A DNA stretch of 11,111 bases, taken from the NCBI GenBank assembly GCA_046153645.1, contig JBJXGI010000073.1, forward strand, positions 1 through 11,111. Reading direction: 5' to 3'. How positions within the stretch are numbered: position 1 is the stretch's first letter; every line of letters begins with the position of its first letter. This DNA is from Elusimicrobiota bacterium. Its GTDB lineage: Bacteria; Elusimicrobiota; Elusimicrobia; F11. The translations under genes were made by a program, and so were the position numbers. The notes under the pieces were generated by a model, which ran no database searches, was not told where the DNA came from, and was given only the letters and a program-made list of their open reading frames with translations. This document shows, piece after piece, positions 3 to 11,111 of this stretch.

Positions 3-3000
3 ATCGCCAACGCTCTCTTGGTTGATAATAATTACGGAATTCTTATTGCACTTGCTATTTCTCAAGTGCTTGGAATTCTCGAACACTTAAAGATTAATTG
101 GATTTTGAAGGATTCGGTACCGGCGTCCCATACACGAACAAGCACGTCATTTACCCCCATAATAACTTTCACTCCAGAACAAAAATTGAAATGGCTTTCA
201 CTAGAAACGAATCAATCGGGATTAGATTTAATTCCGGAGTTCAAAGTTCTAGATAATAAAAAATCCAAGTATCTAAGTAGCATTATTGGCGATTTATTTC
301 GGAATGCTTATGATGCCAGTGACAAAGGAAATGAAACAGAAAAACTCAATGACGCTCAAGTTGTATTTGGCATAAATGAAAAGGGAGATGGGGTTTTTAG
401 AATATCTAACCCTCAAAGAATTAACCGAGAAAAAATAAAAGACTCGCTACCGGCTATTAGAGATAACTTACTGAAAATTCGGAAACTTATTCGTTCCAAT
501 TCAATTGACCCTGAAATATTATCACCATTTCAAGTTTTACCTTTGTTGAATTTGCCACATAAGAAACCTGCTGAATATCTCCGGGAAAGTTTAGGTATTG
601 TTTTATTGTTATTAACAAAAACGGATGATCTCACCGATGAAGACGTGGACTCTTTATTTTTTGCGGCATTTACAACGACAAAAATATCAGAACAAAAAAA
701 CACTTATTTTAAAGAGATGGCTCAAGAAGATGCCTTAGGTGGCACAGGATTTGGCTTATTTTTAGCTAAACAAATCGCACCTTATTTGGGTGCCCAAATA
801 AAAACACGTTACCTTCCAAACGAAACAATATTTGAGTTCATTATTCCGAAAGAATTATTTCAAATTAATTCCGTCCAAACAAAAACGAAACCGAATATAG
901 ATAAAACTGAATTCATTAAACGGTTGCGTTTTAACGGAATGCAACTTCCCGATGAAATATTGGAAACAATAATAAAAATAGAAAATTATTCAGTTGAATC
1001 TGTAACAGCAGCTTTTAGTAAACATAGAAAAAGAATATCTTTGCTCCTGACTTTCAAAATCGCAGATATTGCTTATTCGCTTCAAAATTCTCTTTTTCCA
1101 CTTTTTACACATAAAAAAGAACCCGTTAAAAAAAGTCGGGCGACGGCCAAAAACTTAAGTGATCAAGATGTCAATGCTCTTGCAGAAGAAATAAATAAAA
1201 AATTAGGAGGGCCGAATTTAATTCGTTTACCGGATATAGAAATAGAAGGACAAAAAATTCAAGTTGAAACATCGAAACCCATTCCCAATAAGATAAATAC
1301 CCTTTATAGAGTAGGCCCTCTTATTGTTGTTTTAATTCCAACGTTAGAAACAGGTATTTACAATATTAAAGAGAAAAAAAATGAACTCATTGAAAAACTA
1401 GGGGAACTCTACGAAAATAATAGAGGCAACATATTGTTTTGTTGCGCGCCTCCTTATCAAAAAGCCATGTTTGAAGTGGGACATTATTTGAGCCCTCACG
1501 CATTTGTACCCTTAGCCCACTTAATTGTTCATCGAGAAAAAATAAAAGATGTAACTATTGGCTTTGGTTCAGCTGACGCCTTATTAGAACAAGCCGCCTA
1601 TGTGTTGGGAAAAGGAAAAATAACTTTGGTTGAGAAAGAGACAGGGTCTTTAATGGCTGGTTATGCCAATATGTTTGATTTGATTGAAAACGAAAGTGAT
1701 GTCATATTGGTAAATGAAGATATTTTAAATATTGAATTAAATGACCCTATGTTTTATGGCGTTAAAACAGTCATTGCCAATATTGGGTCCCCTAATGTAT
1801 ATCTCGGAGTGAATGATAAAGTTGTTCAAATTGTTAAAAACATAGCGGGCTTAGAATTGTTTATCAACTCGGGCTGGCTGTTTAATGATCCAGCGGCCAT
1901 TTCATCTCTTAATCAAACAGTGAATGTTTTAGGGGGAAAAAGGTACGACTATATACTTCCATTAACATTTCGAGGTGGAAATTCAGATTTTAAGATGAGC
2001 GTGATTGTTTATGAAAATTCACAAACGAGAAACTATCATCCCGTACAATGGGAAACCGAAAAAATAGCGCTCATTGAAAAAGAAAATCCTGGAATAACAG
2101 AGAAAATTAAAAAAATATTGAGTTCCTACCCCCATAACTTACAGGAAGGGATTGATTTTGAAATAAGGGAAGAAGGAATAAGTGAACGGGTTTATCTCAT
2201 AAAACTGAATAAACCCATTTTAATGGATGGACGACTTCTGACCCACATAAAAATAAAAGGAGCAACATTACCCAGAGGGGGATCAAAAAAACTTTTTGAC
2301 CCTAAAAAATTTTTACTAGAAAAAGGATTTCTAAAAAACGAAGGAACAAATAGATTCGGTAGATATGTTACAAATAAAGACGGAATTATTTCTTATGCCG
2401 ATAGACTTGATGTTCCTCATTTAGGCATAACATTTGACAAGGCTCAAAGAGAATTTATTGGAAATAATAATATACCGTTTGATTTCTCCTCGCCTATTTC
2501 ACTGGGACTTGCTTCTTTTTCCGACCCCAATGATCTGATGGCCAATGGGCTACCAGCGGGAGCTGTGATCGAAGCTATTCCTGCGGTAATTAGTGGAGGG
2601 GATATGCTTTCTATGATGACAACCCTATTTCAAGATGGAATACGGGAAGGCAATCCTGATCCACAATACATTTCTGATTCCAATAGATTTTATGCGGGGG
2701 CAGGCAATAATTTAGCGGAACTTGCCAGTCAAAAAGTTCTCCATGAACAACTGCATATAAACAATTGGGGAATCCAAGAAACAGATGAAAAAGTTTTTAT
2801 ATCTGATAATGAAAGCACAATATTAAATAATGAGTTAACGCCATTACAATATTTCGCGCAATTATTTATAGCTCTGAGAAATATGAGCGGGTCCGCTGTT
2901 CGAGGATATAATACGGACTTCTTCCAGAAATTCAAATACAATCCCGTTCCACACATCACCAGAGGATTTTTAGGATCTGATTCATTTCCGAATTTAACCT

Positions 3001-4940
3001 CAGATGATCTTGATGACACCATTAAACAATCACAGCAAATGCCGCTATTTCTAAGCAACAACCCATTGATTAATGCCATGCGGTTGAGGTTCCCAGCTCT
3101 CACTCAAGCCTGTGAAGAACAACTAAAAAATATAAAGGCAGACTGGCAAGGAAAGTACAAAGGAGAAACAAAAAAAACAACCACTCCCAACGCCTCTCAT
3201 ACAGGTTATTGGGTTTTAGATTCCTTTACTGAACAAATTTTTCCAGCGCTGGCAACTTTGATAGGGGGAAGCATTTTTTATTATCTCAATGGATCGGGAA
3301 TGTTTGGGGGAAATATTAGTCCTCATTTAACTTTATTTGATTATTTCCTTGGCTTTTCCATGTCGATGTTATTTTTTACCTTTGTTTTCTTTAGGATTTT
3401 CGATTGGCTTCACAATAAACAATTTGAAAATGTAAAAGACAAGCTTGCTCAAATTTACCCGAATGAAAAAATAACTCGAGATTTATATTCTTATCATCTC
3501 TTTAAATTATCTGCTTATTTTGTTGTCCCAACATTTATTTCATTTTTTCTTATTGTTTATTTCTTCAATGATTTTAGGTTGGCTTTTGAAGTGTCTCAGC
3601 GAATTGGGATTTCTGCTCATCTTATTCTCAATTACTTTAACAGAAGAAAAATTCTCGCCTCTCACAGCGGAAGAAATAAAATTAAACGAAACCACAAAAA
3701 GCTTCCATCGTTACCCTTTATGACTGGGTCTATTTACGATCCCAAATTTATTAAAAAAGAACGGGCCGTTTCAGCAACAAACCCCACTGTTGTATTCGAT
3801 CTCAACAACACCTTAGGTTTTATGCAAGATGGTCAGTGGAAAACAAGACCAGGTGTTTTAGAAGAACTTAAAAAACTAAAAAAGAAAAACTATCGATTGA
3901 TTTTATGGACATATTCAAATCAAAAACTTGTCGAAGACGTTCAACAGCAAGATTCTCGATTCATGGAATATTTCGACCAAATTATTACATTTGAAAATTA
4001 TAGACCGGAATCGAATGAGCCCGATATATTTGATCCTTTCATTGAAAAAGTGAGGAACGCTTACGCAGAATATATTGATCCTAGCCGAGAAACAACTTTT
4101 GACCCTCATTACATTATTACAATAAACAAAGGAAAAGATATTAGTTTACTGGGGTATCACGTTATTGTTGATGACCAAGATCTAGCAACAACGTCAAATT
4201 GGTCTCCAACAGGTTCGATCAAACATATTCATGTTTCTGGTGTTAATCAAATCACAACACCAACAACAATTGTTGATAGAGAAATTTTAGAGTTAACAAC
4301 CACAATAGAAGCGCAAATAAATGAGAGATCAGCAAATCAGGAACTCATTGAGCTATTTATGGGAAACACAAAATCTTTAAATATCTCTGATATTGATGGT
4401 GTTCGCTTTAATAAAGCTGAAACACCATTAGCGCTCAAAAAAATAAATGAATTCAAGAAAGATAAAGTGATACTCGTCGACCAATCGATGCTTGATTGGC
4501 TTATCCCTCAGTGGGGTTTAATTTCTGCGCAAAACCAAACCTCTCAAAACAAAATTATCCTTATTCCATCAACCAAAGCTATAGAAGAGGCCCTTATAAG
4601 TAACATTCCAAAAGATCCTAACAATGAAGGAATTGAAATTATTTCATTCAAAAAAAGTAAAAAACTCTTCGAAACAATCAAACAAAATAAATTATTTACC
4701 GGAATAAATTCTGATGAGTTAATTGAATTGCTTAAATTCGTTCGCAAACAGACGAAAGCACAATCCGCACTGGATGTGGCTTTGTTCATTCCGTCTACAT
4801 TCAGACTGATTCTTGATAAAAAAGGAACCGATATAGAAAAGTTATTTCATACGCTTTTCATTGTTATTGATTCTTCACAAGGGTTATCCATTCTCACCAC
4901 CAACATCAAAGTTCTTAAAGCAACTGAGAAAGCTGCTTAA
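3..4940 (+). CDS. Giant multidomain membrane-associated protein, 5'-truncated by the window (HATPase_c-like, SAM-methyltransferase-like, kinase-like, CPBP-like membrane module, FCP1/NIF-like HAD phosphatase, unknown C-terminal domain)
   Basis: The ORF track gives 18..4940 from a TTG, but the frame has no stop back to nt 3 (ATC GCC AAC GCT CTC TTG), so the true start is upstream. Motifs: GDLFRNAYDA (288-317) and GGTGFGLFLAK (738-770); VTIGFGSAD...LVEKE (1551-1640); IKIKG (2247-2261), HEQLHINN (2742-2765) and ISDNE (2799-2813); a hydrophobic block at 3204-3656 with FTEQIF, FDWLH and HLILN; VVFDLNNTL (3789-3815), LILWTYS and KDISLLG..IVDD (to 4175). Confidence is high for the CDS and moderate for the domain calls. 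Confidence 0.88.
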   Translation: MANALLVDNNYGILIALAISQVLGILEHLKINWILKDSVPASHTRTSTSFTPIITFTPEQKLKWLSLETNQSGLDLIPEFKVLDNKKSKYLSSIIGDLFRNAYDASDKGNETEKLNDAQVVFGINEKGDGVFRISNPQRINREKIKDSLPAIRDNLLKIRKLIRSNSIDPEILSPFQVLPLLNLPHKKPAEYLRESLGIVLLLLTKTDDLTDEDVDSLFFAAFTTTKISEQKNTYFKEMAQEDALGGTGFGLFLAKQIAPYLGAQIKTRYLPNETIFEFIIPKELFQINSVQTKTKPNIDKTEFIKRLRFNGMQLPDEILETIIKIENYSVESVTAAFSKHRKRISLLLTFKIADIAYSLQNSLFPLFTHKKEPVKKSRATAKNLSDQDVNALAEEINKKLGGPNLIRLPDIEIEGQKIQVETSKPIPNKINTLYRVGPLIVVLIPTLETGIYNIKEKKNELIEKLGELYENNRGNILFCCAPPYQKAMFEVGHYLSPHAFVPLAHLIVHREKIKDVTIGFGSADALLEQAAYVLGKGKITLVEKETGSLMAGYANMFDLIENESDVILVNEDILNIELNDPMFYGVKTVIANIGSPNVYLGVNDKVVQIVKNIAGLELFINSGWLFNDPAAISSLNQTVNVLGGKRYDYILPLTFRGGNSDFKMSVIVYENSQTRNYHPVQWETEKIALIEKENPGITEKIKKILSSYPHNLQEGIDFEIREEGISERVYLIKLNKPILMDGRLLTHIKIKGATLPRGGSKKLFDPKKFLLEKGFLKNEGTNRFGRYVTNKDGIISYADRLDVPHLGITFDKAQREFIGNNNIPFDFSSPISLGLASFSDPNDLMANGLPAGAVIEAIPAVISGGDMLSMMTTLFQDGIREGNPDPQYISDSNRFYAGAGNNLAELASQKVLHEQLHINNWGIQETDEKVFISDNESTILNNELTPLQYFAQLFIALRNMSGSAVRGYNTDFFQKFKYNPVPHITRGFLGSDSFPNLTSDDLDDTIKQSQQMPLFLSNNPLINAMRLRFPALTQACEEQLKNIKADWQGKYKGETKKTTTPNASHTGYWVLDSFTEQIFPALATLIGGSIFYYLNGSGMFGGNISPHLTLFDYFLGFSMSMLFFTFVFFRIFDWLHNKQFENVKDKLAQIYPNEKITRDLYSYHLFKLSAYFVVPTFISFFLIVYFFNDFRLAFEVSQRIGISAHLILNYFNRRKILASHSGRNKIKRNHKKLPSLPFMTGSIYDPKFIKKERAVSATNPTVVFDLNNTLGFMQDGQWKTRPGVLEELKKLKKKNYRLILWTYSNQKLVEDVQQQDSRFMEYFDQIITFENYRPESNEPDIFDPFIEKVRNAYAEYIDPSRETTFDPHYIITINKGKDISLLGYHVIVDDQDLATTSNWSPTGSIKHIHVSGVNQITTPTTIVDREILELTTTIEAQINERSANQELIELFMGNTKSLNISDIDGVRFNKAETPLALKKINEFKKDKVILVDQSMLDWLIPQWGLISAQNQTSQNKIILIPSTKAIEEALISNIPKDPNNEGIEIISFKKSKKLFETIKQNKLFTGINSDELIELLKFVRKQTKAQSALDVALFIPSTFRLILDKKGTDIEKLFHTLFIVIDSSQGLSILTTNIKVLKATEKAA

Positions 4941-4981: not shown

Positions 4982-5017
4982 GAACATAAAGGCGTACTCT
5001 ATTAAACTTCCTCAAAT

Positions 5018-5090
5018 CGGGGTGTAGCTCAGTTGGTAGAGCGCTTGGTTCGGGACCAAGAGGCCGCAGGTTCAAGTCCTGTTACCCCGA
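5018..5090 (+). tRNA. tRNA-Pro (anticodon CGG), CCA not encoded
   Basis: Acceptor stem CGGGGTG/TACCCCG, D arm GCTC-AGTTGGTA-GAGC, anticodon arm CTTGG-TTCGGGA-CCAAG (CGG at 5051-5053), T arm GCAGG-TTCAAGT-CCTGT and discriminator A5090. C1-G72 with A73 is typical of bacterial tRNA-Pro. Confidence 0.97.
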
Positions 5091-5120
5091 AGTTTTTAAA
5101 AATTATTCAGGAGAATTTAA

Positions 5121-5792
5121 ATGCGAAAAACAACTGTTCATTTATTAGTAATGGTAATTATTTCTATGGGCTTAACAGGTTGTGCTGAATTAAATCGAAC
5201 CGCAAAAGGCGGAATGATTGGGGCAACAACCGGTGCTATTTTAGGGGGCGTTATTGGAAAACAAAGTGGAAATACAACAGCTGGAATTTTAATTGGAGCT
5301 GCTTTAGGTGGAGTTGCCGGTGCTTCCATTGGTCATTATATGGATAAACAAGCAGCCGAAATTCAAAATGACATTAAAAATGCGAAAGTAGAACGTGTAG
5401 GAGAGGGAATTAAAATCACTTTTGACTCCGGCATTTTGTTTGATACCAATTCTGCTGTCCTTAAGTCTGCTTCTAGAGATAACATCGCAAGTCTCTCCAA
5501 AACACTAAATAAATATAAAGACACAAATATTGTCATTCAAGGTTATACTGATTCAGACGGATCTGATGATTACAACTTAGCGCTTTCTCAAAAGCGGGCG
5601 GAATCTGTATCCGGCTATACTGTCACACAAGGAGTTCTTGGTAGCCGTATTAGCACGGCTGGAATGGGAGAATCTAATCCTGTTTCAGATAACTCAACAG
5701 CCGCCGGCAAACAAACCAATAGAAGAGTTGAAATTGCTATTTTCGCTAATGACAAACTAAAAAAAGCCGCAACAGAAGGAAAGGAACTTTAA
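5121..5792 (+). CDS. OmpA-family outer-membrane lipoprotein with glycine zipper (YiaD-like)
   Basis: SD AGGAG at 5109-5113; signal peptide with lipobox LTG-C; Gly-zipper GGMIGATTGAILGGVIG...GAALGGVAGASIG; OmpA_C peptidoglycan-binding motifs ILFDTNSA, GYTDSDGSDDYNLALSQKRAESV and NRRVEI. Confidence 0.95.
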   Translation: MRKTTVHLLVMVIISMGLTGCAELNRTAKGGMIGATTGAILGGVIGKQSGNTTAGILIGAALGGVAGASIGHYMDKQAAEIQNDIKNAKVERVGEGIKITFDSGILFDTNSAVLKSASRDNIASLSKTLNKYKDTNIVIQGYTDSDGSDDYNLALSQKRAESVSGYTVTQGVLGSRISTAGMGESNPVSDNSTAAGKQTNRRVEIAIFANDKLKKAATEGKEL

Positions 5793-5836: not shown

Positions 5837-6667
5837 ATGAAAGATAATCTAGATCCAGTTACACTTTATTTTCAAGGAATTAAACATCTTCCTCCTATTG
5901 CTAAAGAGGAATTTGAAGATCTTTGGAAACGCGCAGGTAAAAACGACAAGGTTGCCAAAAAGAGATTAATTGAAGGGAATTTGCGACTTGTCATTCCTAT
6001 CGCGAAAAAATACTTTCGACCGGGTGTTGATTTCTTGGATCTTATTGAAGAAGGAAATTTAGGGCTCATCCATGCAGTAGACAAGTTTGATTACACGCGT
6101 GGGTTTCGTTTTTCTACTTACGCGGCCTACTGGATTGAACAATCTGTACGTCGCGCCATAGATGAGCAATCCAAAACCATTAGAATTCCACCCCACGCTT
6201 GGGAAGCCCTTCGTAAATGGCTTAAGAATTGGGACCAACTTCATGGCCAGCTGGGGCGAGATCCGACTCTTTCAGAAATGGCCAAAAGACTCCATTTATC
6301 AGCAAGGCAAATTCGTGGTGTGTTAGATGCGGCAGAAGCCTCTCGTGGCCTTGAAAGTTTAGACACTCCGTTAGATGACGATGAAGATCTTTTTGTAAAA
6401 GATATTGTAGCCGAATCATCCGTTCATGCACCTGACAATATTCTTTCTGAAATGAGAATGAAAGATGAAATGGAAAAGTGTATGGGAAAAATTGGCGAAC
6501 GTGAACGCCAAATATTAGAGATGCGCTTTGGTTTGGTTGGTAACGATAGAATGACTTTAGAAGAAGTAGGAAAAAAATTACGTCTTTCACGTGAGAGAGT
6601 TCGCCAATTAGAAGAAAGAGGGCTCCAACGATTAAGAAGATCTGCTCAACGAATGGGTTTAGTTTAA
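5837..6667 (+). CDS. RNA polymerase sigma-70 family factor, RpoD/RpoS-like, non-primary (no region 1.1)
   Basis: Region 1.2 DPVTLYFQGIKHLPP; region 2 NLRLVIPIAKKY...DLIEEGNLGLIHAVDKFDYTRGFRFSTYAAYWI; region 3 TIRIPPH...LGRDPT; SLDTPL; region 4 HTH MTLEEVGKKLRLSRERVRQLE. Length 276 aa. Confidence 0.95.
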   Translation: MKDNLDPVTLYFQGIKHLPPIAKEEFEDLWKRAGKNDKVAKKRLIEGNLRLVIPIAKKYFRPGVDFLDLIEEGNLGLIHAVDKFDYTRGFRFSTYAAYWIEQSVRRAIDEQSKTIRIPPHAWEALRKWLKNWDQLHGQLGRDPTLSEMAKRLHLSARQIRGVLDAAEASRGLESLDTPLDDDEDLFVKDIVAESSVHAPDNILSEMRMKDEMEKCMGKIGERERQILEMRFGLVGNDRMTLEEVGKKLRLSRERVRQLEERGLQRLRRSAQRMGLV

Positions 6668-6673
6668 TCAAAA

Positions 6674-7207
6674 ATGACCCCTGGTTCTCAGCTAGAATTA
6701 AAACAATTCATTAGAGACATCCCCAATTTTCCTAAACCAGGTATTTTATTTCGAGATATCACAACTCTCCTCAACAATCCTATTGCCTTTAAATCAGCCA
6801 TTGATGACCTCGCTTATCGTTTTAAAGATAAAGGAATCACTAAAATTGTCGGAATTGAATCTCGAGGTTTTTTAACAGCGGCTCCCTTAGCCTATCTTTT
6901 AGGGGCTGGTTTTATTCCCGTTCGAAAAAAAGGAAAACTTCCTTATCAAACAAACTCTGTTTCATATGCGCTTGAGTATGGGTCTGATACTTTAGAAATC
7001 CATACGGATGCAATTAAAAAAGATGAAAAAGTTCTTATTGCCGATGACCTTTTGGCAACAGGGGGGACGGCAAAAGCAACTTGTGAATTGATTGAAAAAA
7101 GTGGGGGCAATATAGTCGGACTTGCTTTTCTTATTGAATTAACGGGACTTAATGGCAGAAATGCCTTAAAGAATTATAATATCCAGTCATTAATGACTTT
7201 CCACTAA
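6674..7207 (+). CDS. apt: Adenine phosphoribosyltransferase
   Basis: IRDIPNFPKPGILFRDITTLL, GIESRGF, VRKKGKLP, YALEYG and the PRPP-binding motif VLIADDLLATGGT. Starts 6 nt after the sigma stop codon. Confidence 0.97.
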   Translation: MTPGSQLELKQFIRDIPNFPKPGILFRDITTLLNNPIAFKSAIDDLAYRFKDKGITKIVGIESRGFLTAAPLAYLLGAGFIPVRKKGKLPYQTNSVSYALEYGSDTLEIHTDAIKKDEKVLIADDLLATGGTAKATCELIEKSGGNIVGLAFLIELTGLNGRNALKNYNIQSLMTFH

Positions 7208-7227
7208 ATATAATGAAAAGGATTTTT

Positions 7228-7300
7228 GTCTCCGTAGCTCAATTGGAAGAGCGGCTCCGTCCTAAGGAGAAGGTTGCTGGTTCGATTCCGGCCGGGGACA
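7228..7300 (+). tRNA. tRNA-Arg (anticodon CCT), CCA not encoded
   Basis: Acceptor stem GTCTCCG/CGGGGAC, D arm GCTC-AATTGGAA-GAGC with the A20 arginine identity element, anticodon arm gCTCC-GTCCTAA-GGAGa (CCT at 7261-7263), T arm GCTGG-TTCGATT-CCGGC and discriminator A7300. Confidence 0.93.
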
Positions 7301-7312
7301 GAATAAATATAT

Positions 7313-7966
7313 ATGAATACAACTGAAAACGCAGAACAAAAAATAACCAATGGCATAAAATCTTTTTTTGAATGGTCTTTTTCAAATATCCAAACCATTG
7401 GAATTGCATCGGCCATTATCATAGGTGCTATTCTTATTGGAAGTGTTTTTGTTTTAAGACAAAAAGAGGCGCACGAAACCCAACTAACAAATTTAGCTAT
7501 TGCTGAAAAATTTATTGGTCAAAAACAATATCCCAACGCTGAAAAAATATTAACTGAAATAAAAAATAAAAATCCGAAAAAAAATGTTTTATTGCCTACC
7601 TTATATTATCTGGGTGATATTGCGACGCATTCTAATTCCCTAGATAAAGCCTTGGAATACTTAAATGAAGCCAAAGGCATATCTAATAACTCACCATTCC
7701 TTCCCTTAATCCTTTCCAATATTGGATTCGTTTATGAAGAGAAGAAAGATTTTTCTTCTGCTGCAGATACCTATCGCCAATTCATGAATTCTTTTTCTGA
7801 GCATTTTATGTCGCCGCGGATTCAATACAGTTTGGGGAAAACATTAGTCCTTTCAGGAAAAAATGACGAAGGTCGTAAAGAGCTTGAACGACTCGTGGAT
7901 CTTTACCCTTCTTCAAAATGGGCCGAAAAATCACGTATAATGATGGACAAATCAAAAACTCGCTGA
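7313..7966 (+). CDS. Membrane-anchored tetratricopeptide repeat protein (YfgM/CpoB-like architecture)
   Basis: Single N-terminal TM helix (IGIASAIIIGAILIGSVFVL) followed by TPR-like units: YYLGDIA...ALEYLNEA, SNIGFVYEEKKDFSSAADTY and YSLGKTLVLSGKNDEGRKELERLVDLYPSSKWAEKS. Confidence 0.88.
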   Translation: MNTTENAEQKITNGIKSFFEWSFSNIQTIGIASAIIIGAILIGSVFVLRQKEAHETQLTNLAIAEKFIGQKQYPNAEKILTEIKNKNPKKNVLLPTLYYLGDIATHSNSLDKALEYLNEAKGISNNSPFLPLILSNIGFVYEEKKDFSSAADTYRQFMNSFSEHFMSPRIQYSLGKTLVLSGKNDEGRKELERLVDLYPSSKWAEKSRIMMDKSKTR

Positions 7967-8065: not shown

Positions 8066-9433
8066 ATGAAGAAACTAATGGCTTTGGCCATAGTTAGTGT
8101 TGTCGCCGCGTCCACGCCGTCGTGGGCAATTATCGGCATGGGAGACATCAAATTCGATGGCTCTCTAGAAGTAAGTGGTAACTCCGCTAATAACGAAACT
8201 GACTTCGCTCCAGCCAATGATCACAGAGGAAACACAACTTCTCGTGTTCGTTTGGGAATGGATACTGTTGTCACAGAAGGTGTTAACGGTAGATTAGAAG
8301 TAACCAGAACAGCAGAAAGAGCAGGATCGGGAGAAGTATTATACGGTGGTTCTAGTCGTTCAAATAGCGTGCATACGGAATCGGCGAACCTTTTCCTTGA
8401 TAATGCTTACGTTGAATTCGAAAATCTATGGAATCACAAGTTTCGCTTAGGACGACAATATGTTGGTCAACAGGGCGATCTTATTTGGCATATCGGGCCA
8501 AAAAGTGACGATAGCTTATCAGTTACATCAATTGACGGATTGCGGGCGGAATGCACGCAAATTGAAAAATGGCTTGGTGAGCTCTTCGTTGGTAAACTCT
8601 CTGAAGATGATGCTGTTGCAAACTCAGATGCTGGTGATACCACTGGTGATGTGAATCTCGGAAATCTTTCTGTTGTTTACAGCTTACGTCCAGAAGCGAT
8701 ATTAAATGCTGGATTCCTCTGGGGCGTTGATTCAAACACTGCCTCTGCAAGCGACAACAACAGACTCAACATTATCCGTGTTGGTTCAAAAGGTGGATTC
8801 CAGGAAAATCTTTTCACCTATCGAGCTGAATATCTCCAAAACTCTGGTGCCCTTCAATCAGGTACAACTGATTATAAAGGTAGTGCCATTGATATTGGAT
8901 TTGGCTTTAATCCTAAAGATACATCCATTGGAAATTTTGGATTATGGCTCAACTATGTTCAGGCCTCCGGCGATGATAAATCTGATAAAGAAGATAAATC
9001 ATTTCATGATTTTTCAACATTTGGAACCAACACCTCAGATCGTTACTTCGGAGAGATTTATGGCCGAAGCAATACTTTGGGTGGCGGAACCCCTTCTGGT
9101 CAAGGCCTAGATTCTGGTGTTCAAGGATCTGGTTTAGTGGTCCTTAATTTTGGGTTTCATTTCAAACCAGCTAAACTTCCTAAGAACTGGGTTAGATTCG
9201 ATTACTTCAACTTAAAAACCGATAAAGATGTTTCGACAACTTTAGGTGATAAGCTTGGTAATGAATTAGACATAACCTTTGGTTATGACCAGTCTAACAA
9301 CGTTAAAATTGTATTTGGATATGCACAATTAACTCCAGATTCAGCACTCATTGGAAGCACCACTGCTCCTGATGATGATGTAACGAAATTCTTTGCACGT
9401 GCCAATGTTCATTGGGGCGGAGAAGATAAATAA
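8066..9433 (+). CDS. Outer-membrane beta-barrel protein, alginate export (AlgE)-like family
   Basis: Sec signal peptide MKKLMALAIVSVVAASTPSWA; alternating amphipathic beta-strands; motifs RVRLGMD, LDNAYVEF, FRLGRQ, IDGLR, YVQASGDD, RFDYF and LGNELDITFGY, typical of this porin family. Confidence 0.8.
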   Translation: MKKLMALAIVSVVAASTPSWAIIGMGDIKFDGSLEVSGNSANNETDFAPANDHRGNTTSRVRLGMDTVVTEGVNGRLEVTRTAERAGSGEVLYGGSSRSNSVHTESANLFLDNAYVEFENLWNHKFRLGRQYVGQQGDLIWHIGPKSDDSLSVTSIDGLRAECTQIEKWLGELFVGKLSEDDAVANSDAGDTTGDVNLGNLSVVYSLRPEAILNAGFLWGVDSNTASASDNNRLNIIRVGSKGGFQENLFTYRAEYLQNSGALQSGTTDYKGSAIDIGFGFNPKDTSIGNFGLWLNYVQASGDDKSDKEDKSFHDFSTFGTNTSDRYFGEIYGRSNTLGGGTPSGQGLDSGVQGSGLVVLNFGFHFKPAKLPKNWVRFDYFNLKTDKDVSTTLGDKLGNELDITFGYDQSNNVKIVFGYAQLTPDSALIGSTTAPDDDVTKFFARANVHWGGEDK

Positions 9434-9568: not shown

Positions 9569-10903
9569 ATGAAAAGAAACAAATTAATTGTATTTTTAGC
9601 TTTTACTACCCTGGTCAACTTTATTCCAAACAACTCTCAAGCCACATCACTTTCATTGGGTGCTGATTATCACCTAAAAGGTATTTCAATTACGCAACGG
9701 GATAAAACGCTTAATGATCTCGACTATTATGATCAGCGCTTACAAGGTTATCTCATTACTGATTTAAGCCAAGAGGTAGAAGCGACGATAAAAATTCAAT
9801 CCATTACTCCATGGGGATACGAAACCTCGACAACAACACTACAAAGCCGCTACCCCAACGCCAATGGGCAACTTTGGGTGCAAAATGCTTTTTTACGATT
9901 GCCTAAATTATGGAAAGATAACATTGTATTAACTGTGGGAAGGCAACCTCTTCAATGGGGGGATGGATCCATTTTATCTGATGATGAACTAGGATTTAAT
10001 GCCATCAGAGCGCAAATGAAATCTCCCTGGGAGAAATTATCTTTTGATATTGAAGGTTTTCTCGCGAAAATAAATGAAAGCCTTGCCTCAAAAGGCGATA
10101 AAGACCTCTATGGTGCTTCTATTGGTTTTGATCGACAAGCGCTTCGTTGGGAAATAATGGGACTTTTAGAAAAATCAGATGGCAATCAAAACTATGAAAA
10201 CGGCGCAGACACCACAACCTTTACTGCCAGTAAGATAGACCGCCAAATTTTGGGCGTTCGAGTAAAATCAAATCTGCGAGACGCCTATGTTAAAGGTGAA
10301 TATTACCTTCAAACAGGTAAAGTAAAACAAGCTTCTGGCGCGAGAGATGTTGATTTAAGTGGGACAGGTTATTTATTCGGTTTGGGAGGGAAATCAAATA
10401 CGTCAAAATATGGCCGTTTTGGCGCCGTTGTAGAGTATGCCGTAGGCGATGGAGATAAAGCAGACACTCCCAATAAAGATGAAAGCTTTAGGCCCAGTTT
10501 TGCAGGTCGTTGGAATGGCTTAGAAAGAAAAGGCTATGGTAAATACTATGCAGCCACATTCTCTGATGCCTACTCACCGACAGATCCATTTGGAGAGGCT
10601 TCAAGTCAAAATGACGGCCTTCCTGCCGGCACATCAGGCATACAAACCATTAAATTTGGGGTTGATTCCACGCCACTGCCGAAATGGACATTCTCATTTG
10701 ATTACTTTCAGTTTAAAGCACAAAAGAACATCTCTGGACCTAAAGAATTAGGAACCGAGTTTGATTATGGAGTTGTTTATAGATATTCAGGACTTGTGAG
10801 TGCACATGTCAGCTATTCGCAATTTAGACCAGGGGACGCTTATCCTCAATCAAGTAGGCAAACAGCGAACTTCAGTTCTGTGGAAGTATTAATTAAGTTT
10901 TAA
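9569..10903 (+). CDS. Outer-membrane beta-barrel protein, alginate export (AlgE)-like family, paralog 2
   Basis: Signal peptide ending NSQA; motifs VQNAFLRL, LTVGRQPLQWGDG, GFNAIR, YAVGDGD, FDYFQF and LGTEFDYGVVYRY; C-terminal Phe (VEVLIKF) consistent with a BAM beta-signal. Confidence 0.8.
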   Translation: MKRNKLIVFLAFTTLVNFIPNNSQATSLSLGADYHLKGISITQRDKTLNDLDYYDQRLQGYLITDLSQEVEATIKIQSITPWGYETSTTTLQSRYPNANGQLWVQNAFLRLPKLWKDNIVLTVGRQPLQWGDGSILSDDELGFNAIRAQMKSPWEKLSFDIEGFLAKINESLASKGDKDLYGASIGFDRQALRWEIMGLLEKSDGNQNYENGADTTTFTASKIDRQILGVRVKSNLRDAYVKGEYYLQTGKVKQASGARDVDLSGTGYLFGLGGKSNTSKYGRFGAVVEYAVGDGDKADTPNKDESFRPSFAGRWNGLERKGYGKYYAATFSDAYSPTDPFGEASSQNDGLPAGTSGIQTIKFGVDSTPLPKWTFSFDYFQFKAQKNISGPKELGTEFDYGVVYRYSGLVSAHVSYSQFRPGDAYPQSSRQTANFSSVEVLIKF

Positions 10904-11014
10904 ATTCAACGCCGCTTCATATTCACTTCTATAATTCAAGGTGAATCTACTTTTCTTCGTGATGCGCTAAAATCGAACCCGCTTAGGGCCTGTTGCGAAA
11001 TGAAGTGCCGAATC

Positions 11015-11100
11015 TGTCATCCCGGCCCTTTTTCTAAGGGGTGTGATTGCTGAGGAGAGAATAAGCCGGGATCCATTTGTTCCGGCGAATGTCGTGACGA
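11015..11100. repeat. REP-like palindromic element (GTCATCCCGGC...GCCGGGATCCA type) with a degenerate second half
   Basis: ATCCCGGC (11019-11026) pairs with GCCGGGAT (11065-11072), enclosing an inner CCCTT-TTTCT-AAGGG hairpin, and is followed by TTCCGGC...GTGACGA. It is GC-rich relative to the window. Only one copy is visible, so repeat status is inferred. Confidence 0.5.
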
Positions 11101-11111
11101 CCCACCTTTTT

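Follow-up and report, generated by a model that had tools for sequence, protein, structure and literature searches.

Whether giant bacterial proteins act whole or are cut into several products is a question that the candidate cleavage sites described here may help to address. The window, that is, the whole 11,111-nt stretch of DNA that was analyzed, is a complete contig (C78) of an Elusimicrobiota bacterium, and it opens within a forward-strand ORF of 1645 aa whose 5' end is open (3..4940). A preliminary description had claimed that a short word, A-S-H-[T/S], recurs in this protein at the edges of multi-helix membrane modules and might mark sites of self-processing. The word does occur where it had been reported, as ASHT at aa 41 (nt 123-134) and aa 1064 (nt 3192-3203) and as ASHS at aa 1219 (nt 3657-3668), when only 0.012 copies are expected by composition and none of 20,000 shuffles contains three. 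When the count is corrected post hoc by admitting every 4-mer of equal rarity whose last position allows two letters, 1 in 1,000 shuffles reaches three copies, and the bare 3-mer ASH is less striking (5.6% of 2,000 shuffles). What does this word do at the edge of a membrane cassette?

The answer depends on the gene to which the open frame belongs. The terminus of contig C49 is 100% identical to the first 127 nt of the window, and synteny independently confirms the linkage: of the 9 Elusimicrobiota loci looked at, 7 have homologues of the pair of genes that precede the giant ORF on C49 directly ahead of tRNA-Pro and the sigma gene, with the giant absent (the two remaining loci had no match to these two genes). 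The window is thus the 3' end, and C49 the 5' end, of one giant Elusimicrobiota gene. The sigma factor next to it has its closest matches, at 86-92% identity, in Elusimicrobiota MAGs. Since the acyltransferase-like gene (a label given from sequence) and the tRNA-Pro(CGG) gene between which the giant sits adjoin each other in these 7 of 9 relatives' loci, the arrangement suggests a lineage-specific insertion next to a tRNA.

The part of the gene borne by C49 codes for 1,459 aa, which comprise, in order, a signal-like start, a domain of ~500 aa, a two-helix hairpin, a beta-propeller, and a membrane cassette. The ~500-aa domain is common to 47 other ORFs of the same genome (hereafter, the paralogues), and the combination of signal-like N-terminus and ~500-aa domain that characterizes Elusimicrobiota giants finds matches in all 11 of the other genomes of the family. 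In the paralogous giants, F-A-H usually stands close to where the signal-like stretch ends, with E and W-x-E-R-R after it, which looks like a conserved targeting signal. Another contig of the assembly, C86, carries a 10,189-aa ORF whose eight membrane modules belong to another type, one that bears HExxH; the word N-P-I-N precedes most of them.

A third piece of the gene probably lies on contig C46, which codes for 864 aa with both ends open and on which a cargo with a weak PolyA_pol match is flanked by one and a half further cassettes, whose DNA is 94-96% identical to that of the C49 copy. Public contigs from four DNA runs of one study, which may include the source sample and whose depth was not taken as copy number, show three distinct continuations at window position 127: that of the window, that of C46, and one absent from the assembly. 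With three starts and three ends, these data fit one gene with three near-identical cassettes and the divergent one at 3207-3656, in which C46 would be placed between C49 and the window. The giant gene thus probably carries at least four copies of a four-helix membrane cassette with Glu, His, His, and Asn. The analyses below bear on the three pieces (C49, or locus L001; C46, or L002; and the window), which total 3,968 aa; the features of the window are collected in table 1.

Table 1. Features of the 11,111-nt window, with the basis of each label.
Position (nt)	Strand	Feature	Basis
3..4940	+	3' portion of giant modular membrane-protein gene	ORF; 127-nt 100% end overlap with C49; synteny
3..122	+	Tail of near-identical cassette copy; H-x-x-x-N of its last helix at nt 84-98	
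123..134	+	ASHT, C-flank motif, 13 residues past His of HxxxN; inter-copy DNA identity ends within it (position 127)	
270..860	+	HATPase_c-like cargo (weak)	Pfam PF02518, E 0.0022, below cut-off
1530..1800	+	Possible Rossmann/methyltransferase-like cargo	Label of the preliminary description
2058..3143	+	Kinase-fold-like cargo, SelO/MchC look-alike	L090 homologues, ESM Atlas
3192..3206	+	ASHTG, N-flank motif, 13 residues ahead of conserved Glu	
3207..3656	+	Four-helix membrane cassette, E3231, H3411, H3618, N3630, CPBP-like pattern	Residue conservation, AlphaFold model
3657..3671	+	ASHSG, C-flank motif, 13 residues past H3618	
3768..4175	+	HAD-superfamily cargo, motif I D-L-N-N-T	TIGR01684, E 7.6e-9, below cut-off; Pfam HAD-type hits
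4290..4937	+	C-terminal domain, no family assigned	Pfam, NCBIfam searches
5017..5091	+	tRNA-Pro(CGG)	Downstream border of giant-gene site
5121-5792		OmpA-family protein with glycine zipper	
5837-6667		Sigma-70 factor	
6674-7207		Phosphoribosyltransferase	
7227-7301		tRNA-Arg(CCT)	
7313-7966		TPR protein	
8066-9433		Outer-membrane-barrel-like protein, first of tandem pair	No Pfam hit
9569-10903		Outer-membrane-barrel-like protein, second of tandem pair	Alginate_exp, E 7e-9
10984-11111		~127-nt repeat at contig end	Also on C33 (100% and 78%) and C30 (84%)

The cassette places its polar residues in a fixed order, with Glu on helix 1, His at the end of helix 2, and His-x-x-x-Asn at the end of helix 4, and in the window these residues are found at the positions named earlier. 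An AlphaFold model built with a 62-row alignment shows four helices (pLDDT 78, pTM 0.65), with the N-flank motif directly ahead of helix 1 and the C-flank motif closing helix 4; a first structure model had reached a pLDDT of 54 and its fold search was uninformative. Lysines and arginines number 4 in the N-flank, 0 in loop 1-2, 6 in loop 2-3, 1 in loop 3-4, and 9 in the C-flank, so that by the positive-inside rule both ends of the cassette and its Glu, His, His, and Asn would share one membrane face.

When a profile of three cassettes was searched against 1.84 billion representatives, it returned the three pieces of the gene itself and a single outside protein, P0004 (E 3e-14, 28% identity), whose C-terminal part matches the giants of two relatives. 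P0004 keeps ASHSG ahead of its cassette as well as the Glu and both His, with H-x-x-x-D replacing HxxxN, and has no motif after the cassette. Across the three lineages that can thus be compared, 139 columns are free of gaps, and the 27 of these that do not vary include the A, S, H, and G of the motif, the Glu, and both His. Elsewhere, a word-indexed protein search for homologues of the cassette type returned the window protein only, contig scans found no relative, the ESM Atlas gave leads below 0.9 only, and none of the 11 other genomes of the family (71-100% complete) had a match; among 401 genomes of the phylum, weak matches in 6 others (E 0.002-0.007, four of them with internal stops) were not used.

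How closely is the motif tied to this cassette? The three pieces of the gene together hold six ASH[TS] and, if K is admitted as a post hoc addition at the third position, seven A-S-[H/K]-[S/T] where 0.2 would be expected, and all seven lie at cassette edges: four of them 13 residues before the cassette Glu, and three at the same distance past the His of HxxxN. The C-flanks read ASHT, ASHS, ASKS, and ASKS, with K for H in two copies; the additional unassembled cassette copy seen in public contigs also runs on into A-S-K-S. The two His-bearing C-flanks belong to cassettes that are just 34-37% identical. Codons of the motif vary synonymously between sites, and the fourth residue is coded TCC, ACA, or AGC, from which it follows that the A-S-H word is conserved as protein; on account of this codon variation, a DNA recombination core was also rejected as the nature of the motif. 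A signal peptidase I site, weighed by the usual rules for such sites, was set aside as well, no membrane helix preceding the N-flank sites. Between the near-identical copies, DNA identity sets in some two codons ahead of the N-flank ASH and stops at the C-flank A-S, at window position 127, so that the duplicated unit is the cassette plus its motif. The claim that the motif brackets the cassettes is therefore borne out, by the fixed spacing, the conservation at the protein level, and the recurrence in a distant homologue that keeps the Glu, His, and His; so is the claim that the first copy in the window follows the tail of an equivalent module, since the window opens in the tail of a homologous cassette of which complete copies are found on C49 and C46. 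The broader idea that the motif marks domain borders holds for cassette edges and not for domain borders in general: within the pieces, it is absent from the cargo-cargo borders (HATPase-like, kinase-like, HAD and C-terminal domains), and the two-helix hairpin ahead of the beta-propeller on C49 is without ASH.

Outside this gene, the motif is scarce. The 47 paralogous ORFs hold one match in 105,301 aa, the 1,502 other six-frame ORFs of the genome hold eight in 660,056 aa, and the relatives hold two in 256,749 aa (86 long ORFs at 81 loci, namely 80 long-frame regions from 150 listed of 620 matches, plus locus L014), neither of which adjoins a cassette. The enrichment in giant ORFs for which the preliminary description had proposed to look is hence absent from paralogues and relatives alike: the motif belongs to this one gene and is no mark of the giant-protein family.

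We also asked whether matched flanks are a general feature of such cassettes. Among 93 cassettes in 56 clusters, a cassette's own N- and C-flanks resemble each other little more than mismatched pairs do (nine tests, P 0.027-0.40), and flank pairing within genomes, with the ASH cluster left out, is not significant (P 0.12-0.40); the window cassette ranks third of the 93 for 5-mer similarity between its flanks, at the symmetric positions E-13 and H+13. An EM motif run on all N-flanks exceeded its null (LL 73 vs. at most 62 in 12 shuffles), and the trained family flank motif failed 15 of 16 cross-validated tests. Given this failure, a universal flank motif was rejected; the hand-made patterns were post hoc. 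In two other clusters (L082 and L090), A-S-I stands on both flanks (2 of 55 clusters, post hoc P 0.014). The weak pairing, the failed trained motif, and the A-S-I pairs indicate together that the flank signal pertains to certain cassette types and does not extend to the family as a whole. In L082, three related cassettes stand in tandem within one giant; in L090, the A-S-I cassette follows two homologues of the kinase-like cargo of the window.

The preliminary description had likened the cassette to the CPBP/Rce1 proteases. Within the CPBP or type II CAAX family (PF02517; MmRce1, MroQ, myxosortase MrtX), TM4-TM7 are described as making up the core domain (PMC11980579), and Glu140, His173, His227, and Asn231 are described as lining a cavity that opens to the cytosol (PMC12067869). 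The cassette has the same order of Glu, His, and His-x-x-x-Asn, four helices, and ends that are predicted to lie on one face. Its HxxxN on the last core helix is present as H3618/N3630; H3411 is invariant at the end of helix 2, as in FxxxH, with F three residues earlier, not four; and the Glu at nt 3231, invariant in the three lineages, stands in E-Q, without the second Glu or the Arg of EExxxR. Sister cassettes in the same giants do match PF02517 (9 of the 62 aligned cassettes, best E 5.4e-7), but these matches all fall among the 59 other cassettes (E up to 0.1), against 0 of the 3 ASH-type rows. A cassette-family HMM, built from 84 rule-based candidates from which nine rows were dropped as false and to which two of the gene's own cassettes were added before iteration, gave 124 aligned hits, 95 of them with E, H, H, and N/D, while reversed controls reached an iE of 0.34. 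When the ASH type was left out of this HMM, it scored an iE of 3.3 (reversed controls reaching 0.26), and hhalign between the ASH type and other cassettes gave probabilities of 2% and 0.4%. Fold searches with the better model returned generic helical matches only, Rce1 and SpdC being absent among the matches listed, and the cassette-family profile retrieved nothing useful from PDB sequences. Membership of the ASH-type cassette in the CPBP family was thus not demonstrated by HMM, profile, or fold search, and its CPBP ancestry and protease activity are putative. It looks as if the cassette works like a CPBP core, in view of its residue order and charge pattern, and CPBP proteins without catalysis are reported to exist (PMC13692083).

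Of the cargo labels in the preliminary description, that of HATPase does correspond to a Pfam match, which falls below the cut-off, whereas that of methyltransferase finds no database support, as window positions 1530..1800 hit nothing in Pfam and nothing of relevance in NCBIfam or the PDB. The kinase-like cargo bears an H-x-x-x-H-x-x-N loop and D-N-E; two tandem homologous copies of it occur in the giant L090 (E 3e-34 and 1e-30), and its ESM Atlas leads stand at 0.93-0.96, with one cluster in which SelO is found on 35% of the members. In the HAD cargo, the second Asp of the canonical DxDxT motif is replaced. On C46, aa ~500-720 form a nucleotidyltransferase (PolyA_pol/CCA-type)-like cargo between near-identical cassettes, with a Pfam E of 0.005, below the cut-off.

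Among the possible functions of the motif, the one that we favor, at a confidence that falls a little short of even, is that A-S-[H/K]-[S/T] is a cassette-specific self-cleavage site that would release the cargo on the cytoplasmic side. A motif that stands 13 residues away from residues of catalytic type at either end, predicted to be on one face, is what a cassette would need to free both its neighbors. Each cassette would then be a pared-down four-helix CPBP-like glutamic protease core, for which the motif would serve as the recognition and cleavage signal proper to the cassette type of this gene. A cut at the N-flank would free the C-terminus of the upstream cargo and a cut at the C-flank the N-terminus of the next one, either in cis or by a neighboring cassette copy, with the scissile bond most likely immediately after A-S. 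The giant would in this way mature into an anchored head and soluble blocks, which would be the nucleotidyltransferase-like block of C46, the HATPase/kinase-like block, and the HAD and C-terminal block. The occurrence of every site at a cassette flank, ASHSG in P0004, the synonymous codons, the cytosol-fitting K/R pattern, the Rce1-like matches of sister cassettes, the A-S-I pairs of L082 and L090, and the bounding of DNA identity by the motif are in favor of such self-cleavage. Against it stand the lack of a profile link to CPBP, E-Q in place of EExxxR, a C-flank motif that is variable or missing, the lack of a family rule, the ASH-free hairpin of C49, the existence of CPBP proteins without catalysis, and the signal-peptide-like start of the gene, which is difficult to reconcile with cytoplasmic cargo. 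As the signal-like N-terminus implies export of the head, when the charge pattern puts the cargo in a cytoplasm, the cargo might act in another cell.

The strongest rival, which we consider possible yet distinctly on the doubtful side, is that the motif closes off the cassette structurally, as a helix cap or an interface loop, that the repeat unit duplicates and recombines with cargo at such ends, which would make the C-flank copies relics of tandem duplication, in which one unit ends where the next begins, and that nothing is cleaved, the cassettes being membrane anchors that perhaps bind metal or lipid. The exact coincidence of the start and end of the duplicated unit with the motif would be explained in this way, as would its position before helix 1 and at the end of helix 4 in the AlphaFold model, the inconstancy of the C-flank copy, and the want of a family-wide flank rule; moreover, in other genes as well, duplicates were seen by eye to stop close to short words at the flanks (9 genes, 16 pairs). 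However, the residues are retained despite synonymous divergence, which argues against a DNA recombination core, there is no clear reason for one word to serve both as N-cap and as C-cap, and polar residues within the membrane helices, namely the Glu and both His, stay invariant at ~30% identity. That C-flank readings are so uneven (ASHT, ASHS, twice ASKS, and nothing in P0004), among copies that are not independent, could also mean that the N-flank ASHSG alone is meaningful, as one of the usual conserved stretches of the domain, with C-flank matches that arose partly by chance atop a conserved A-S; the His-bearing C-flanks sit, however, on cassettes as divergent as those described above, and the high rank of the window cassette in flank similarity at E-13/H+13 also speaks against this, which makes it very improbable in our eyes. 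We find it unlikely, if somewhat less so, that some other enzyme or a receptor acts on the motif (a protease, whether of a host or a housekeeping one, a Ser/His kinase, or a sorting or translocation factor), the cassette itself not being the catalyst. The motif does lie at the membrane face next to K/R-rich linkers, 19 of 27 matched paralogue N-termini have a His close to where the signal-like stretch ends (often as F-A-H), as an echo of A-S-H, and T-A-S-H resembles the phosphohexomutase phosphoserine motif. A shared enzyme should nonetheless leave its motif in many paralogues, when a single one was found among 47, and the two occurrences in the relatives' 86 long ORFs are never beside a cassette.

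Self-cleavage by the cassette would have analogues, so that the view that no bacterial system compares with this layout needs to be qualified: multi-site self-processing is described for MARTX (PMC2900308), and for fusions of PrsW, a CPBP-related intramembrane peptidase, autoproteolytic release of the fused toxin is proposed in polymorphic toxin systems (PMC3482391). In MARTX, a protease embedded in one giant bacterial polypeptide cuts it at multiple sites on either side of the effectors, and a repeated motif, a candidate site, stands before and after cargo here too; the MARTX enzyme, as described, is a single soluble InsP6-activated cysteine protease that acts at Leu sites, in a toxin aimed at eukaryotic cells (PMC2900308), whereas neither RTX repeats nor a MARTX-type cysteine protease were seen in the three gene pieces. 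The PrsW-toxin fusions are described as one eight-helix PrsW domain with one C-terminal toxin domain (PMC3482391), when the giant would have four or more cassettes, with internal cargo to either side of them and a flank motif that recurs. Compared with CPBP proteins, finally, the cassette is the four-helix core only, occurs in multiple copies between soluble cargo in one chain, and would have its own flank as substrate.

For the giants of Omnitrophota and Elusimicrobiota, described as very long and multi-TM, cutting into several products is proposed in a preprint (bioRxiv 10.1101/2023.11.21.568195) that, in the text available, ascribes cleavage to C39/S8 peptidases, states the cleavage points as unknown, and does not contain the terms "CAAX" or "polyprotein". 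In the available text of a 2026 Omnitrophota preprint (10.64898/2026.06.07.730766), a term search found the words "motif", "cleavage", "CAAX", and "CPBP" absent. Our literature search yielded no description of CPBP cassettes, flank motifs, or this layout in these giants; the bioRxiv supplements, which lay outside its scope, might bear on this point. The new part is the paired flank motif, which, if the cassette cleaves, would define a new variant among self-processing multi-cargo proteins.

By extension, one may speculate, with rather little confidence, that these giants are membrane-threaded polyproteins in which each reduced intramembrane protease cassette, with cut sites to match, excises itself. 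The cassette with its two sites would then be a portable "cut here" unit by which a bacterium could string unrelated enzymes together in one gene and release them, be it into its cytoplasm or inside the cell of a prey or host, and its specificity words (A-S-H, A-S-I) would have diverged by cassette type. The giant gene provides exact candidate cut sites and candidate catalytic residues within a unit of ~160 residues that can be expressed alone, which reduces the question of a whole or a cut protein to one construct. If the unit cleaves, an intramembrane protease core able to cut on both sides of itself would be a new route to a bacterial polyprotein, and it might double as a self-excising membrane tag.
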